From the IMG/VR virus record IMGVR_UViG_3300032335_001233, positions 51,490 through 115,489 of that record: 64,000 nucleotides of DNA, one strand, 5' to 3'. Below, one piece after another: positions 11,112-52,477 of the stretch. Within the stretch, counting starts at the first letter, position 1. Each line of letters starts with the position of its first letter. The notes below the pieces were generated by a model. It was not told the DNA's origin. It saw only the letters and a list, made by a program, of their open reading frames with translations, and did no database searches. Origin of the DNA: a virus. Lineage: Duplodnaviria > Caudoviricetes. A program made the position numbers and the translations under genes.

Positions 11112-11971
11112 TCTAGGATAACTTTTTTGACCCACTGTCGTTGAGCTATGTCATGCATCATGCGTTCGCGGTTGCCATCAAATTCAATGTCAGCCACAGG
11201 ATATCTCAAGGGTCTTGCTTGTGCATTATACACACTCTTGATGCCACGTGCAACAAAAAATTTTGGATGCTGGTCAATGTAATGTTGAATACGGCCATAC
11301 TGAGTGGCAAGATTGCGATCGTGAAATGCCACATAGAAATCCGCCGAGTAGTGATCAAATGGACAAAATGCATCATCTGAGATATACTGGTCATTGTCAC
11401 GTGCCAAGTCTTCTACTGTTTTTCCAATCTCACAGTAGTTGAGATACACTGTGCCCCAAGTCACTCGCCAGTCGCCATAGCATTGAGCTATGTCAGCAGG
11501 CAGCTGATGCGTCTTGGGCATGCCAAACCATGTGCACACCAATTTGGCGTGAGAGCCTGCTAGCACAGACTCACATTGGTGCACTGCCAAGTTTAATTCA
11601 CTCAGTGCACGGCGCACTATGTCTGGTGCTGACTGCCAAAATTCTGAGTGCTGTTGATCCAACAATCCGTGATGGCATTCAAACACATGGTGAAGGTAAT
11701 TGAGACAGTCTTGTGTCCACTCAAACTCACGCTCAATCACCGGCGCATGTGAATTGATGATGGCTATGCAGTGGCGTATCCAGTGCTCAGCAACTTTGCA
11801 CTGAGTTTGGGCAGTGCCAAATCCAGAGAATCTGTCAGGGTGGTCCATGGGCCATGCAGTGCGAGCCAGCATGCGCTCAGTCCATAGTTCAGCCAAGGGA
11901 GTTTGACGAATTCGAAAACGCAACTCTAGATCTCCACTGGGACCTAGATGAATACATAAGTGCTTGGGCAT
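11108..11971 (-). CDS. Hypothetical protein
   Basis: Long His/Trp-rich ORF (LNYLHHVFE); likely start MPKHLC at 11971. Confidence 0.7.
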   Translation of the reverse strand: MPKHLCIHLGPSGDLELRFRIRQTPLAELWTERMLARTAWPMDHPDRFSGFGTAQTQCKVAEHWIRHCIAIINSHAPVIEREFEWTQDCLNYLHHVFECHHGLLDQQHSEFWQSAPDIVRRALSELNLAVHQCESVLAGSHAKLVCTWFGMPKTHQLPADIAQCYGDWRVTWGTVYLNYCEIGKTVEDLARDNDQYISDDAFCPFDHYSADFYVAFHDRNLATQYGRIQHYIDQHPKFFVARGIKSVYNAQARPLRYPVADIEFDGNRERMMHDIAQRQWVKKVILE

Positions 11972-11999
11972 TGTGTATATAGCCACAGTCTACGCGGTC

Positions 12000-12025
12000 A
12001 AAAAAACAGGGACCGAAGTCCCTGT
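12000..12025 (-). terminator. Rho-independent terminator with UUCG tetraloop
   Basis: Minus strand ACAGGGAC-TTCG-GTCCCTGT followed by a T-run. Confidence 0.88.
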
Positions 12026-12031
12026 ATAAAG

Positions 12032-12061
12032 CCTGGGCCGGAGCCAACCGAAATGCCCAGG
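12032..12061 (-). promoter_or_regulatory. 3' UTR stem-loop with anti-RBS loop
   Basis: CCTGGGC-[ATTTCGGTTGGCTCCG]-GCCCAGG; loop GTTGGCTCC is the reverse complement of GGAGCCAAC directly before the ATG at 13203. Confidence 0.6.
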
Positions 12062-12068
12062 AAAACCA

Positions 12069-12182
12069 CTAACTCAGCATCAACCCCATCACAAAAATCA
12101 AAAACGCCCAGCCTGGGTAACCAAACAACAAAGCCAACATGGCCAATATGGTGCCAAAGAAGGCTTTGTCTGAGTTGGTCAT
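12069..12182 (-). CDS. 37-aa hydrophobic membrane peptide
   Basis: Below the ORF-track cutoff. MTNSDKAFFGTILAMLALLFGYPGWAFLIFVMGLMLS; starts 1 nt after the ATPase stop. Confidence 0.6.
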   Translation of the reverse strand: MTNSDKAFFGTILAMLALLFGYPGWAFLIFVMGLMLS

Positions 12183-12183
12183 G

Positions 12184-13203
12184 TCAAGCACTTTTCATAC
12201 AGGTAGTCTCTGCCAGACGCTTCCAGTTCAGCACTGACATCTTGCGCAAGTCTGCAATCTTCAGCGCCATGCGCAGGCTTACCTCACGCAGGCGATCCTT
12301 GTTGGTGTGCATGAAATCAATGATGTCGTCTTGCACAGCAGGCTCAAACTCATAATCTGCAAACAACACACCATCTTTGGCAATCTGTCGAATACGCAAC
12401 AGCTTGTCACGCATGGTGTCCAAGGTCAGGTCCAGGTAGTGACAGCGCGATTGCAGTGCGTCCAAGTGATCACGAAGCTTTTGCGACTTCATGGCATCAA
12501 ACTTGAGGTTGGTAATAAAGATCACTGAACCTTTGAACTCAAACTGGTCAGGAATGCCTTCGCGACGCAGAGTTGAGCTTTCTGACAACCAGGAGATCTT
12601 GCGCTTCTTGCCAGAGTCAAGTGCACCCTTGAGCAAGTTCAGCGAAACATCGTCCAGCAAAATGCTGTCACAGTCGTCAAACACCACAACACAGTTGGTG
12701 TCTGAGTATTTGTACAGAGTTTGGTACAGGCCGATAGGTGTAGCCGAGCCCTTGACAACTTCGGCACGAAGTCGCTTGCCAGCAATTTTGTCAAACATTG
12801 TGGCTTTTTCAATCTCTTGCTCCACGCCAAACGATTTGCCGACGCCGGGAGGGCCGCTCACAATCATGGCACGGATGTCGCCAGTCACAGCAGCCTTGGT
12901 CATTTCGGTAAGAATGTCAAATCGCTCACGGATACGATCCATGGCTTGTTCGTCAGTTTCAGTAACCACAGGCTTCTCAAAAGGTACGGTGTTGTTGGTA
13001 GTCATGCCGTTAGTATACTCAATGTCGCGAATGCTGTCAACCCGGACTCGGATCGTATCGCTAAATTTAGGAAAATGTCCGGCATTGCGAACAGTGACAT
13101 AGCCGCCGCGGGCACCAGTTTGAAAGCCGGAAATCAGCTCAAATTCAGTGTTAACAATGTTGTAACCGCGGTAGTTACCTTTTACAATTCGAATAGTACT
13201 CAT
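12184..13203 (-). CDS. AAA+ family ATPase
   Basis: Walker A GPPGVGKS, Walker B VVFDDCD, IFITN sensor, ALQSRC; start MSTIRI with GGAG RBS. Confidence 0.85.
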   Translation of the reverse strand: MSTIRIVKGNYRGYNIVNTEFELISGFQTGARGGYVTVRNAGHFPKFSDTIRVRVDSIRDIEYTNGMTTNNTVPFEKPVVTETDEQAMDRIRERFDILTEMTKAAVTGDIRAMIVSGPPGVGKSFGVEQEIEKATMFDKIAGKRLRAEVVKGSATPIGLYQTLYKYSDTNCVVVFDDCDSILLDDVSLNLLKGALDSGKKRKISWLSESSTLRREGIPDQFEFKGSVIFITNLKFDAMKSQKLRDHLDALQSRCHYLDLTLDTMRDKLLRIRQIAKDGVLFADYEFEPAVQDDIIDFMHTNKDRLREVSLRMALKIADLRKMSVLNWKRLAETTCMKSA

Positions 13204-13234
13204 GTTGGCTCCAGTGAGTTGTTGCAGTTTCAGT

Positions 13235-13384
13235 ATGTCATTATTATAGCAAATTGGGCTTTTTTGGTCAACCGTGTTGCGTATTTGCAACACTGTGTTT
13301 TCTGCCCCTTTTTGCTCATCATGTCATTATTGTAGCAAAATCAGCATTATTGGTCAACCGTATTTTTGTTGCAAAAAAGCAACA
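13235..13384 (-). promoter_or_regulatory. Tandem duplicated sigma70 promoters, each with an upstream TGTTGC-N6-GCAACA palindrome
   Basis: TTGACC-17-TATAAT (13271-13243) and TTGACC-17-TACAAT (13357-13329); palindromes at 13274-13293 and 13367-13384. Confidence 0.8.
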
Positions 13385-31022: not shown

Positions 31023-32609
31023 TTAGCGCATGATGCTGATGAACGGCATGGGTTCAATCACGTTGTCTGAGTGATCCTTGAGGTGTCGGTCAAGATCGGC
31101 GTGATAAGTCTGCAACAGCATCAACATGCGTGTGGCCAGCAGTCCTGACATCACTAGATCGTCAGTTTCGCCAGGTTTGGCAGCATAACTGGAGCCGTTG
31201 GCCACAAAGGTCTTGAGCTCGCTGAGAAATAAACGACTGTTGATGCGCATGCGACCAGATTCTACCAAGACTTTGAACTTGTTGCAGGCCGTGATCTTGG
31301 CTTTGTTGGTGGTGTTGAAACCTTTGCGGAATCTGCGGCCTGTAGTACCCGTCACCGAGTTGTCGCTGAGAAAATAGCCTTGTATACGGTCTTCTCCGTA
31401 TTCAGTGATTGAAATTAGGGCTGCTTCACCAATGGTATTGTTTTCCACACTGTAGTAAATGCTTTTTTCGTCTCGCACCACAGCATAGAGCTCATTCACA
31501 ATTTCAGCCATGATTTTGATTTGATTGGGAATGTCAGTTCGATTGTGACGCCACTCGGCCACTTGAATTGTGGTGTCAGCTTCAAATACCTGTATGGCAG
31601 CAGGATCACCGCCAGTGCCCAAGCTGGGATCAAGAGCCACAATGTAAATTTTGCCAGGTTCGGGCTCTTTGTACCAGCGCACTTGTCCGCTCTTGCGTAT
31701 GGGGTCACGTCCTTCCAGTTCCAAGAGCTTGACCGGACTGATCAGGGTCTCGTCGTTGATCACAAACTCACAGTCCATCTCGCGACGAAAACGTTCTTCG
31801 CCCAGCTGAGCACGCTGCTCCTCGGCCCAGGTTTCGTCACGATCAGGGTGCTCTCGCCAGTAGGCTCGATACGCACGGAATCCGTTGATGCCCAGGCCAT
31901 TGGGTCTGGGATTGCCATACTCGTCTTCTACTTTGTTGGCGCCTTTCCAGATGTAGGCAAATTGGTCTTCGTCTGAGTTGGGAGTTGAAGTGATAATGGC
32001 CTTACCGCCTGTGGCCAAGGTGGGCGAAATTGAAGTCCAAAATTCCTTGGCAATGGTAGGCCGCACAAACGCAAACTCGTCTGCGTACAGCAGCGAGATA
32101 GACATACCTCGGCCAGTGTTTTCAGTTGTGGTGGCCGACACAATTCTTGAGCCGTTGTCAAACTCCAAACTGCCTTTGTTGTAGCTCACGGCACCAGCAC
32201 GAATGTGATTAGGGCACAGTTCGTAGGCAAAGCGAATACGCTGCATGATTTCCTGAGCACCGGTGTACTTGTGCGCAGCAATTAGAATTGTACTGTCTGG
32301 AACAAACATAGCATACCACAGCAGGTAGCCCCCTGCCGATGTTGACTTGCCGGTTTGTCGAGGCATGAGACTGATGGAGTAACGATAGTTGTGATAGGTC
32401 TCGATCAGTCGGCGTTGGTACTCAAACGGATGATACACCATTTTGCCACGAGTGGGATGCTGGATCCAAAAGTAGTTGTCCATGAAGTACATGGGCCCCG
32501 TGACAGGATCAGCACACAACGAAAACTCCAAGAGCTCTTGGTCAGTGTATGTTTCTCTACGGTGCGGTGCTTTGACCAGCACTGTGTCTAGTGTACCTGG
32601 TTTGATCAT
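31023..32609 (-). CDS. gp17: Terminase large subunit (T4 gp17-like)
   Basis: PRQTGKS, YADEFAF, TSTPN, LDPSLG, VENN, DDLVM. Confidence 0.95.
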   Translation of the reverse strand: MIKPGTLDTVLVKAPHRRETYTDQELLEFSLCADPVTGPMYFMDNYFWIQHPTRGKMVYHPFEYQRRLIETYHNYRYSISLMPRQTGKSTSAGGYLLWYAMFVPDSTILIAAHKYTGAQEIMQRIRFAYELCPNHIRAGAVSYNKGSLEFDNGSRIVSATTTENTGRGMSISLLYADEFAFVRPTIAKEFWTSISPTLATGGKAIITSTPNSDEDQFAYIWKGANKVEDEYGNPRPNGLGINGFRAYRAYWREHPDRDETWAEEQRAQLGEERFRREMDCEFVINDETLISPVKLLELEGRDPIRKSGQVRWYKEPEPGKIYIVALDPSLGTGGDPAAIQVFEADTTIQVAEWRHNRTDIPNQIKIMAEIVNELYAVVRDEKSIYYSVENNTIGEAALISITEYGEDRIQGYFLSDNSVTGTTGRRFRKGFNTTNKAKITACNKFKVLVESGRMRINSRLFLSELKTFVANGSSYAAKPGETDDLVMSGLLATRMLMLLQTYHADLDRHLKDHSDNVIEPMPFISIMR

Positions 32610-49607: not shown

Positions 49608-50738
49608 CCAGGCCTTGAGTATGATCAAGTTCTCAGTGCCACGAGCATTCCAGGTTGTCTCTGTGGTAGTGAGCTCTTTGAAGATCTTGCGAGCCGCAGG
49701 CTTGCCGGCCGCTGTGATCTGTCGTATAGTTTCTGCAGGCTTGCGCACAGTTTTTTGCTGTGTTTCTGCTGTGCTGAAACCAATTATGCTGTTGCTCTTG
49801 ACTGTAAACACCTTGGCGTACTCGTCGGCCACTACATGAATCAACTTGCGCTTTTTGGTGTCGTAAAGCCAGGCTTCGCTTTTGTCCACTAGACTGGCTG
49901 CTGGCAAACTCCGGAGTTTGAGCTCAGGAAATTCTGCCATGATCTTGAAACGAGCGGCTCGTTTTTCTGGCGCCACAGGCTTGACTTTGCGTGGCTTGCG
50001 TTCCACTTTCTTGATCTGCACATAGCTACCACAGTCTGTGACCACTAGTTCGCAAAACTTGATGCAGTTTTTGAGCTGAGTCTTGGTGAGATGACTGTAA
50101 CCTTGTACCAGTTGGGCGTCTTTGCCGGCCGCTGCCAGTTCCAGCTCGGTTTGGCGCTTGACCCAGATGTCTCGAATCAAAGAAATCATCTGCGGTGCAA
50201 TGTTCATGCCGCGAATCACTGTCACAGGCTTAAAGTCAGCACCGAGCTTGGCGCCAGCGGCAACAAAGTCATCGTACATGCCTTCCAGTTCTCCTGCGCA
50301 TTCTGTGACTTTTTCACGCAATCGATCTTGAATGGTCACGCGATTTGCAGTGTCGGGCTGTGCCACAGGTTCGGGCGCTGGCTCGTCGCGCTGATTCAAC
50401 AGTTCGGTCAACATGCTGTCTAGGGTGCCTTGTTCGCGTTCGGTCAGCACCAGGCCCATGTCCACCATGCGACAGGTCCAGCCTGCTGTGAGACGTACTT
50501 TGCTGTCGGGCAGAGCTCGCACTCGTTTGGCGTCACGAGCACGATCACGCCGATCCAAATAACCAGCAATCATGTCCTTGGCTTCTTTTTTGCCGTAGAA
50601 ATAACTGTACCAATTCAGTGCGCGACTGAGTTCGCTGATGCGACGGTCTGTGGGCTGAGTGGCCCACTGTGGTTCTGAACCCATGTATTTGGTGTCAGGG
50701 CTTCGGGGATTCAGTGTTTTTGGTGCAAGAGATTTCAT
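49605..50738 (-). CDS. Hypothetical early protein
   Basis: 377 aa, AAGGAG RBS, consensus sigma70 promoter upstream. Confidence 0.8.
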   Translation of the reverse strand: MKSLAPKTLNPRSPDTKYMGSEPQWATQPTDRRISELSRALNWYSYFYGKKEAKDMIAGYLDRRDRARDAKRVRALPDSKVRLTAGWTCRMVDMGLVLTEREQGTLDSMLTELLNQRDEPAPEPVAQPDTANRVTIQDRLREKVTECAGELEGMYDDFVAAGAKLGADFKPVTVIRGMNIAPQMISLIRDIWVKRQTELELAAAGKDAQLVQGYSHLTKTQLKNCIKFCELVVTDCGSYVQIKKVERKPRKVKPVAPEKRAARFKIMAEFPELKLRSLPAASLVDKSEAWLYDTKKRKLIHVVADEYAKVFTVKSNSIIGFSTAETQQKTVRKPAETIRQITAAGKPAARKIFKELTTTETTWNARGTENLIILKAW

Positions 50739-51103: not shown

Positions 51104-52477
51104 ATGCCCAGACTCAGTCTATACCGCCCCAATCGCACACGAGATTACCAGTTTTTGGACCGCACCATTCGTGAAATGTACACAGTGGGCGGCGTGGACA
51201 TCTACTGTCACAAGTATCTTGGTCCCCAGACTGGTGGCGAAGATTCAGCGTTTAGTGGCAATGCTGATGCTACACAACCAGTATATGATTCACTGAGTCC
51301 GCTCAACATTCAAGATTTGCTGTTGTTGGAAAATCGTGATCGAATTTACGATCCTGACATCTACATCATGCGCGGCGTGTACAACACTCAAGATGTGGAC
51401 TTTGATCTCACGCAGTTTGGCCTATTTCTCAACAACGACACCTTGTTCATGACGTTTCACTACAACAACATGATTGACACTTTTGGGCGCAAGCTCATGA
51501 GTGGTGATGTGCTAGAAGTGCCCAATCTCAAGGACTACTATCCGCTTGATGCGTCAATTCCGCAACCCATACCCAAATACTATGTGGTGCAAGATGCTGC
51601 TTTTGCGTCAGAAGGGTTCAGTCAAACTTGGTTGCCTCACCTTTGGCGTGTGAAGGCCACGCCACTGACCAATGCACAAGAATACAAAAACATTCTAGAC
51701 AAACCTGTGGTCACTGAACAGATCTGGGACAACGACAATTTCTATCCCTCAGGTGGGGTAGTAAACTACGGTGATGTGTACTATCGTGCCATTCGCAATG
51801 TGCCGCCAGGCACTGACATCACTGACACCACATACTGGACATTGTTCACACCGCCTACTCAAAGTGACGAATTCAGCACAAGGCCCAAGGATCAAGCCAT
51901 CAACGATGCCATTGTCACACAGGCCAACGTGGAAGTGCCAGCGTCGGGTTACGATGTCAAACAGTTCTATGTGGAGCCCACAACTTTGGACGGACAACCG
52001 GCCAATCCAGTCAGTCTCACCACACAAGATGGCGACACCGTGGATGGCACACAAGGCGGTATGAGTGTGAGTCCACGTGCTGACGGCTACACTGTGGGCT
52101 ATCTCACTGGTGACGGCGTACCACCCAATGGTTTACCAGTCACGCCTGGCGTGGCATTTCCACAGAATCCCAGCACTGGCGACTTCTGTCTGCGTCTGGA
52201 TTATTTTCCCAATCGACTGTTCCGCTATGACGGTCGCAAGTGGGCCAAGATTGAGCAGAGTGTGCGCAACAATCTTGACAACGGTGCCAACAACAATTCG
52301 TTGCGCAGCGGCTTTGTGAACAATACATACACTGTGCCCACCACAGACATGGGCAACATACCCAGTCGCCAAAGTCTCAGCGAAATACTCAAGCCGCGTG
52401 CTGACAACGGTGATCAAGGTGGTGATAAACCCAGCCGACCTTATCCTACTACACAACCTGGCCAGAGATCAAGCTAA
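51104..52477 (+). CDS. gp14: Neck/head-closure protein (T4 gp14-like) with C-terminal extension
   Basis: GVDIYCHKY, LTQFGLFL.ND, GDVLEVP; adjacent to the gp15-like gene. Confidence 0.7.
   Translation: MPRLSLYRPNRTRDYQFLDRTIREMYTVGGVDIYCHKYLGPQTGGEDSAFSGNADATQPVYDSLSPLNIQDLLLLENRDRIYDPDIYIMRGVYNTQDVDFDLTQFGLFLNNDTLFMTFHYNNMIDTFGRKLMSGDVLEVPNLKDYYPLDASIPQPIPKYYVVQDAAFASEGFSQTWLPHLWRVKATPLTNAQEYKNILDKPVVTEQIWDNDNFYPSGGVVNYGDVYYRAIRNVPPGTDITDTTYWTLFTPPTQSDEFSTRPKDQAINDAIVTQANVEVPASGYDVKQFYVEPTTLDGQPANPVSLTTQDGDTVDGTQGGMSVSPRADGYTVGYLTGDGVPPNGLPVTPGVAFPQNPSTGDFCLRLDYFPNRLFRYDGRKWAKIEQSVRNNLDNGANNNSLRSGFVNNTYTVPTTDMGNIPSRQSLSEILKPRADNGDQGGDKPSRPYPTTQPGQRSS

Follow-up and report, generated by a model that had tools for sequence, protein, structure and literature searches.

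A 3'-terminal anti-ribosome-binding-site element that covaries with the start of its own operon in uncultured giant phages

Introduction

Can the 3' end of a phage transcript carry a sequence that recognises the ribosome-binding site (RBS) of the same transcript, and what would such a pairing do? This question is raised by a minus-strand operon within a stretch of 64,000 nucleotides (nt), hereafter the window, that spans positions 51,490 to 115,489 of the IMG/VR virus record IMGVR_UViG_3300032335_001233 (Duplodnaviria; Caudoviricetes). The operon comprises an ATPase gene, a short hydrophobic open reading frame (ORF), a hairpin and an intrinsic terminator, and part of the hairpin loop, referred to here as the anti-RBS, is complementary to the RBS of the ATPase gene. 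The parent record is 115 kb in length with an estimated completeness of 33 %, and therefore represents a giant phage. Genome numbering follows the IMG/VR record; coordinates of elements are those of the 64-kb window, all on the minus strand.

Bacterial mRNAs whose 3' end pairs with their own RBS are known from only a few studied cases (icaR, OppZ/CarZ and hok), and a full-text literature search did not find a published lytic-phage example of such pairing. The phage case is backed by unusually rich natural covariation, drawn from about a hundred uncultured giant phages. To judge from the sequences, it would mean that phages employ riboregulation at the 3' end to control the dosage of an early gene, and it may point to tight control of a widespread, uncharacterised ATPase of the NrdC.10 family.

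The complementary pair in the window

A first-pass annotation of the window had listed tandem promoters, an AAA+ ATPase gene, a 37-residue ORF, a stem-loop and a UUCG terminator, and all of these are present on the minus strand. The parts that bear directly on the pairing, including the Shine-Dalgarno (SD) sequence, are as follows.

13213-13204, minus strand: target, U + GGAGCCAAC, the SD with the full spacer; GGAGCCAAC (13212-13204) abuts the AUG at 13203
13203-12184, minus strand: ATPase gene, 339 residues, P-loop/AAA-like, with a Walker A motif, homologous to T4 NrdC.10
12061-12032, minus strand: hairpin 1, 7-bp stem (arms 12061-12055 and 12038-12032) with a 16-nt loop
12048-12039, minus strand: anti-RBS, GUUGGCUCC + G, on the 3' side of the loop and abutting the stem
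12031-12026, minus strand: U-rich linker between hairpin 1 and the terminator, with conserved TTT columns in the alignment
12025-11999, minus strand: intrinsic terminator, 8-bp stem with a UUCG tetraloop (12025-12006) followed by a U run

As the annotation had stated, GUUGGCUCC (12048-12040) is the exact complement of the SD and spacer sequence GGAGCCAAC that touches the AUG. The two form nine Watson-Crick pairs, and a wobble between U13213 and G12039 lengthens the helix to 10 bp. Within a single genome this 9-nt match is only marginally significant. A window-wide scan found that 9-nt complements to some RBS within 6 kb are common, with a distribution resembling that of the reversed-sequence control. 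On restricting the scan to the 50 nt before intrinsic terminators, compared with RBSs up to 4 kb upstream, the ATPase operon gave the only match of at least 9 bp among 119 RBS-terminator pairs, the controls reaching at most 7 bp; one match was thus found against a chance expectation that we estimate at about 0.17. The same scan of this genome and of G012 (L276-L293), a 349-kb relative that is 97 % complete, revealed no second operon of this design, which is therefore not a genome-wide principle here.

A second complement lies inside the 37-residue ORF (12141-12132, minus strand), where CAUGUUGGCU matches AGCCAACAUG (13210-13201) over 10 nt including the AUG. It is conserved in none of the 108 non-redundant relatives described below and is probably a chance match, showing that such matches occur. 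Since the single-genome match is weak, the significance of the pairing rests on comparative data.

Conservation and covariation among relatives

No match to the locus was obtained by blastn among 50,697 phage records, and relatives were reached only through the ATPase protein. Three IMG/VR scans with the ATPase, from which the best 80 of 273, of 459 and of 420 related loci were taken, provided 198 loci for analysis. These reduce to 108 non-redundant ones, with ATPases 77-90 % identical to that of the window. The helix between the 17-nt RBS segment and the 50 nt before the terminator was scored in the 95 loci whose terminator could be recognised and whose start was secure.

At least 8 contiguous Watson-Crick pairs were found in 89 of the 95 loci (94 %) and at least 9 in 82, whereas only 6 of 1809 control windows placed inside the ATPase gene (0.3 %) reach 8 pairs. 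The position of the helix is also constant: in 90 of the 95 loci it covers the SD up to the AUG and stops between -1 and +2 nt from the AUG. The SD and spacer are conserved far above the rest of the 5' untranslated region (UTR) in the homologous loci.

The majority of loci share the pair seen in the window, GGAGCCAAC(C) / (U)(G)GUUGGCUCC. Beyond this pair, no fewer than eight RBS variants were observed, each accompanied by a matching change in the 3' element. These compensatory classes are given below.

RBS GGAGUUGGC; 3' element GCCAACUCC
RBS GGGCUAGUAA; 3' element UUACUAGCCC
RBS GGGCUAGAAA; 3' element UUUCUAGCCC
RBS (CA)GGAGCUAA; 3' element UUAGCUCC(UG)
RBS GGAGCGAAA; 3' element UUUCGCUCC
RBS CGGAGCCA; 3' element UGGCUCCG
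RBS GGAGCAA; 3' element UUGCUCC
RBS GGGAGUA; 3' element UGCUCCC (one wobble)

If the last spacer position of the RBS is U, its partner remains G, retaining a wobble. Among 27 distinct 13-nt RBS sequences, helices formed within a class are 8-11 bp long and those formed across classes 4-7 bp, and none of 20000 permutations reached the observed total. An ATPase tree places the variant classes within main-class clades, and the GGAGCUAA type occurs in three separate places. The annotation had proposed comparing homologous loci for covariation of loop and spacer. Such loci do keep the 3' element, and its anti-RBS tracks the changes in both SD and spacer. In view of these observations, the pairing between the RBS and the 3' element is almost certainly real and under selection.

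A far more distant homologue of the ATPase, 41 % identical, is encoded by the Pseudomonas phage PA5oct (L294, MK797984.1, 2970-4190) with the RBS GGAGUAGCAU. A small hairpin lies 20 nt past its stop codon; the 3' arm, AUGCUACU, complements the RBS over 8 nt and the 5' arm repeats the RBS. That this hairpin might be the same kind of element is offered as a lead only.

Structure of the 3' element

Hairpin 1 begins 8 nt after the stop codon of the 37-residue ORF (12071-12069), in a 3' UTR of about 70 nt; the corresponding distance from stop to hairpin is 1-22 nt in relatives. In an alignment of 72 loop-type elements, all seven stem pairs of hairpin 1 are changed on both sides, and 6 of 10 terminator pairs covary. 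RNAalifold on the MAFFT alignment found the terminator only; the stem of hairpin 1 was specified by hand and its changes then counted. None of 500 shuffles matched the observed stem covariation, and on sliding the partner column the pairing drops from 93 % to 34-49 %. Several stems contain G-U pairs that would be mismatches on the opposite strand, and the structure is therefore that of a sense-strand RNA.

The anti-RBS always occupies the 3' side of the loop, beside the stem, in loop-type elements, and both the length and the sequence of the 5' loop portion are variable. The annotation had described the loop as exposed. The anti-RBS does lie in the loop; however, it is not fully exposed, since the minimum-free-energy fold closes three additional pairs there (CGG with CCG). 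In loci of the GGAGCUAA type and a few others the anti-RBS is single-stranded, just 5' of a small hairpin, and sometimes overlaps the last stop codon.

The position relative to the terminator is fixed, with 11-36 nt from the end of the anti-RBS to the terminator stem in the 92 loci whose helix has 7 bp or more. The distance from the ATPase stop codon is highly variable: the 3' element starts 3-2084 nt (median 304) after it, with zero to several unrelated small ORFs in between. A U-rich stretch before the terminator is typical of Hfq-binding small RNAs (sRNAs), and the layout of the linker resembles it. With a covariance model built on the alignment, the window and G012 each yield exactly one copy (73 and 79 bits, respectively), the next match having E = 0.24. 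No match to the 3' element was found among 4227 Rfam families at E values up to 1.

Folding of the whole transcript

The predicted transcript of 1238 nt, from the inferred start to the terminator, was folded by partition function; such models leave out ribosomes, co-transcriptional folding and pseudoknots. For the window, 13212-13204 is predicted to pair with 12040-12048 with a probability of 0.64 in the whole-transcript ensemble. Six relatives, drawn from five classes, give 0.77-1.0 for the corresponding pairing. When about 1100 nine-nt windows were ranked as partners of the last 45 nt before the terminator, the RBS came first in each of the four transcripts checked. For the 5' region, RNAalifold was applied to 77 distinct homologous sequences and predicted no consensus structure, and hence no competing one.

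A second pairing segment was noticed in one sub-lineage (L017, L018, L021 and similar loci), where the 5' UTR carries GUAAACCCG at about -27 from the AUG. In the whole-transcript fold it is predicted, with a probability of 0.96, to pair with the 3' arm of the hairpin and the linker, CGGGCUUUAU. The 5'-3' duplex of this sub-lineage would then be bipartite.

How the pairing may act

We propose that the anti-RBS, 9-11 nt presented in a hairpin loop directly before the terminator, would pair as RNA with the SD and whole spacer of the first gene, occluding the RBS up to the AUG. As the helix spans the SD through the AUG in 90 of the 95 loci, it should block binding of the 30S subunit. The ATPase RBS is the probable entry site for the whole operon: the 37-residue ORF starts 1 nt past the ATPase stop codon with no SD of its own and, to judge from the spacing, is probably translationally coupled to the ATPase. 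Many relatives likewise have a following ORF without an SD that begins at the ATPase stop codon or only a few nt from it, because of which translation of the whole operon probably depends on this one site. On the sequence evidence, we hold with good confidence that the pairing would repress translation.

In the preferred reading the transcript would fold back in cis. The RBS would remain open during transcription of the operon and would be shut on completion of the 3' element, so that each transcript would yield a limited burst of ATPase. We give this cis-repressive reading, which the sequences favour through the ensemble folds and the ATPase-specific covariation, a probability of roughly 0.5, and consider it an even bet that cis is the main mode of action. 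A more specific proposal is that of a translation timer, in which the ATPase and the coupled small ORFs are translated only during transcription of the operon and the finished hairpin closes the single entry site in cis. This is put forward tentatively, and we regard it as rather doubtful. If true, the length of the cargo between ATPase stop and element would set the translation window and tune the dose in each phage lineage.

Several observations weigh against the cis-repressive reading. Six loci have a helix of only 5-7 bp, made mostly with the SD. In the minimum-free-energy fold of the full transcript the RBS has another partner, and it is the ensemble that favours the 3' element. Models restricted to nested structures must open hairpin 1 in order to form the long-range helix, and the net energy for the 5' and 3' fragments of the window is only -2.8 kcal/mol in RNAcofold. 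This calculation, which the annotation had suggested as a check, fails to discriminate own-class from cross-class pairs, since hairpin 1 has to be melted in a nested model. The transcription start was placed from the position of the -10 element. A purely cis-acting element, moreover, needs no adjacency to the terminator, and the fixed site also fits a stable 3' fragment.

The alternative that survives best places the action in trans. Hairpin 1 and the terminator, together about 65-70 nt, might persist as a stable sRNA derived from the 3' UTR, either processed or left as a decay remnant. It would repress new ATPase mRNAs in a delayed negative feedback, as do OppZ and CarZ, and may also act on other early genes with a GGAGCCA(A) RBS in the lineage. 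Whatever lies upstream, the element is always found directly before a strong terminator with a long U run, preceded by the U-rich linker, and such a layout is the anatomy of 3'-derived sRNAs (PMC9438474, PMC7398697). There is a single anti-RBS element per genome, and early RBSs that resemble the target recur in the lineage (see below). Against this, genomes of two other classes have no further early gene bearing the class-specific RBS, leaving a regulon that would at best be lineage-specific, and no internal promoter is conserved before the hairpin because the upstream cargo varies. Cis fold-back and a trans-acting 3' fragment would both fit the sequence data; we consider the latter a realistic possibility, somewhat less probable than cis-repressive action. 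The natural orthogonal RBS/anti-RBS pairs form a ready set for tests of cis versus trans action.

Considerably less probable is a non-repressive role, in which bringing the 5' end together with the 3' end would make the mRNA more stable or protect the GGAG of the RBS against nuclease cleavage. There is precedent for both: an interaction of the 5' UTR with the 3' UTR affects how stable the hbs mRNA from B. subtilis is (PMC5737220), and RNA structure guards T4 early mRNAs from RegB, which cuts GGAG in their SDs (PMC3014915). However, a helix running from the SD through the AUG has the geometry of occlusion, and nothing in the sequence demands a stabilising role. A RegB homologue was not found in the record or in two near-complete relatives, in a search that had no positive control.

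Complementary RNA sites are by definition an inverted repeat in the DNA, and two sites flanking the operon that are bound or recombined by a shared protein would also co-change with its specificity. Such a DNA-level explanation is nevertheless very improbable. One copy is always the SD with its spacer, and the other lies in or beside an RNA hairpin with a covarying stem and G-U pairs that fit the sense strand only. At least eight switches of specificity are implausible for a protein among phages whose ATPases are at least 77 % identical. The relatives inspected keep the orientation, the terminator-fused promoter described below and, where visible, the same kind of downstream gene, and no inverted form was noticed among them, although this was not scored systematically. 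Chance complementarity, to which the marginal single-genome match and the non-conserved complement at 12141-12132 would lend some colour, is for practical purposes refuted by the covarying classes, the permutations and the contrast between loci and control windows.

Other possible targets

The annotation had considered the early gene at 50738 as a second target. This candidate was rejected: it shares only the 6-nt GGAGCC with the ATPase RBS, a hexamer that occurs 17 times in the window against 17.4 expected.

Two small early genes (91 and 76 residues) at genome positions 31752 and 32060 on the minus strand, 19.4-19.7 kb before the start of the window, appear from their sequences to be better candidates. 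They have near-identical promoter and leader cassettes, and their RBSs, GGAGCCAAC and GGAGCCAAA, are complementary to the hairpin loop over 8-9 nt.

In G012, early promoters with the pattern TTGACC, 15 nt, TG-n-TATAAT number about 30. GGAGCCAA is found at five early-promoter genes of this genome, and GGAGCC opens about 10 of the 25 early RBSs that could be recognised, far above expectation. Relatives of the GGAGCUAA class lack this GGAGCC tag on early RBSs. In the 36-130 kb region of G012, GGAGCCAAC occurs in 19 copies against about 2.7 expected. Fifteen of these are in coding sequence, three are in RBS contexts and one is the anti-RBS seen from the other strand; about half of the coding copies represent Gly-Ala-Asn codons in repetitive fibre-like genes. 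The 19 copies were therefore rejected as a regulon, and raw motif counts overstate RBS-type targets because most copies are coding.

In genomes of the GGGCUAGAAA and GGAGCUAA classes (D and E), with records 3-39 % complete, no other early gene with the class-specific RBS was found. The ATPase RBS is for this reason the only universal partner, and a wider early-gene regulon would, on this comparison, be lineage-specific at most. A relative of the GGGCUAGAAA class (L297, G001:31463) has GGAGCCAAC as the RBS of a tail-sheath-like late gene of 501 residues preceded by a TAAATA-type motif; the main-class RBS is thus not confined to early genes.

Comparison with known systems

The closest analogues overall are OppZ and CarZ of Vibrio cholerae, autoregulatory sRNAs derived from 3' UTRs (Hoyos et al. 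2020, PMC7398697; review PMC9438474). As in the phage operon, the element lies at the 3' end of an operon, shares its terminator and is complementary to a ribosome-binding region of its own transcript, and the operon must be transcribed to its end before feedback can occur. Pairing by the two Vibrio sRNAs inhibits translation. RNase E processing and Hfq dependence have been demonstrated for OppZ and CarZ, and OppZ targets the internal gene oppB and triggers Rho termination (PMC7398697). The phage element instead matches the RBS of the first gene, with the pairing region in a hairpin loop. The two sRNAs are encoded on a bacterial chromosome, whereas the present element belongs to a lytic giant phage.

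icaR of S. aureus is the closest analogue in cis: the UCCCCUG of its 3' UTR, an anti-SD complementary to the SD of the same mRNA, pairs with it and interferes with formation of the initiation complex (Ruiz de los Mozos et al. 2013, PMC3868564). The icaR mRNA is monocistronic, its 3' UTR exceeds 100 nt and the duplex is a substrate of RNase III (PMC3868564). The phage operon, on the other hand, is polycistronic with variable cargo, has a 3' UTR of only about 70 nt, and its match runs through the gene-specific spacer; the evidence for it is covariation, that for icaR experiment. By the standards of RNase III, a 9-11 bp core helix is short.

In the hok mRNA of the hok/sok system the 3' end folds back on the 5' region and the full-length mRNA is translationally inert. 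The pairing involves the extreme 5' end, activation occurs by trimming of the 3' end, the product is a toxin and an antisense RNA, Sok, is encoded. This system is more distant. The phage pairing involves the SD and the target encodes a 339-residue NrdC.10-family ATPase, not a small toxin; none of these hok features was seen in the phage operon, and a consensus scan predicted no antisense promoter opposite the ATPase RBS.

In B. subtilis, 8-mers that resemble an anti-SD and lie hundreds of nt downstream of an RBS pair with it, with reduced translation and enhanced decay as a result, and selection has depleted native genes of such pyrimidine-rich sequences (Gill et al. 2025 preprint, PMC12697547). 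The phage element, in contrast, is positively conserved, extends into the spacer and occupies a fixed site. Among phages, the T4 genes e, soc, 49 and I-TevI have hairpins that sequester the RBS (review PMC3014915), and there too an RNA structure over the SD or AUG restricts translation of certain transcripts. The T4 hairpins, however, are local, with an adjacent upstream partner, and promoter-dependent; the partner described here is 1.2-3.3 kb away at the 3' end.

Locus layout and minor observations

The remaining features of the operon are listed below.

13357-13329, minus strand: promoter P1, upstream, early; TTGACC, 17 nt, TG-n-TACAAT (10 of 12 consensus matches, extended -10)
13271-13243, minus strand: promoter P2, proximal, early; TTGACC, 17 nt, TG-n-TATAAT (11 of 12 consensus matches, extended -10)
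13236-13204, minus strand: 5' UTR of about 33 nt, A-rich and unstructured, its start inferred from the -10 position
12182-12069, minus strand: 37-residue hydrophobic ORF

P1 and P2, identified by a consensus scan, are tandem promoters of the sigma70 type, and P1 is a member of the promoter family with about 30 copies in G012. A P2-type promoter precedes the ATPase in many related loci, not in all. Some relatives lack the TATAAT promoter (L003, L008, L017, L021, L049 and others), and a conserved CATAGACAGTAA-like motif, about 25 nt 5' of the SD, is found in relatives of this kind; it may represent a separate promoter class that is phage-specific. Each ATPase promoter has a TGTTGC, 6 nt, GCAACA palindrome immediately upstream (13274-13293 and 13367-13384), and similar TGTTGT...ACAACA palindromes occur upstream of the early cassettes at about 31800-32160 of the genome. 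These promoter-proximal palindromes may be operator sites.

The ATPase has a full-length match to phrog_1250 (E = 8e-84), a family of unknown function, and weak Pfam matches to AAA and AAA_16. Homologues were found by tblastn in 1307 phage records, the match in RB32 falling under a gene annotated nrdC.10, and they are frequently mislabelled as thioredoxin. The protein in the PA5oct-like Pseudomonas jumbo phages is the one described above. Peptides resembling the 37-residue ORF are present in several related loci.

Downstream, the U run of the terminator fuses into the -35 element (TTGACC) of the next promoter (window 11965-12001), an arrangement that is also seen in L017, L018 and L025. The AUG of the next gene, of 292 residues, lies only 4-9 nt past a TATATA -10 element, which suggests a leaderless or near-leaderless mRNA for this gene.

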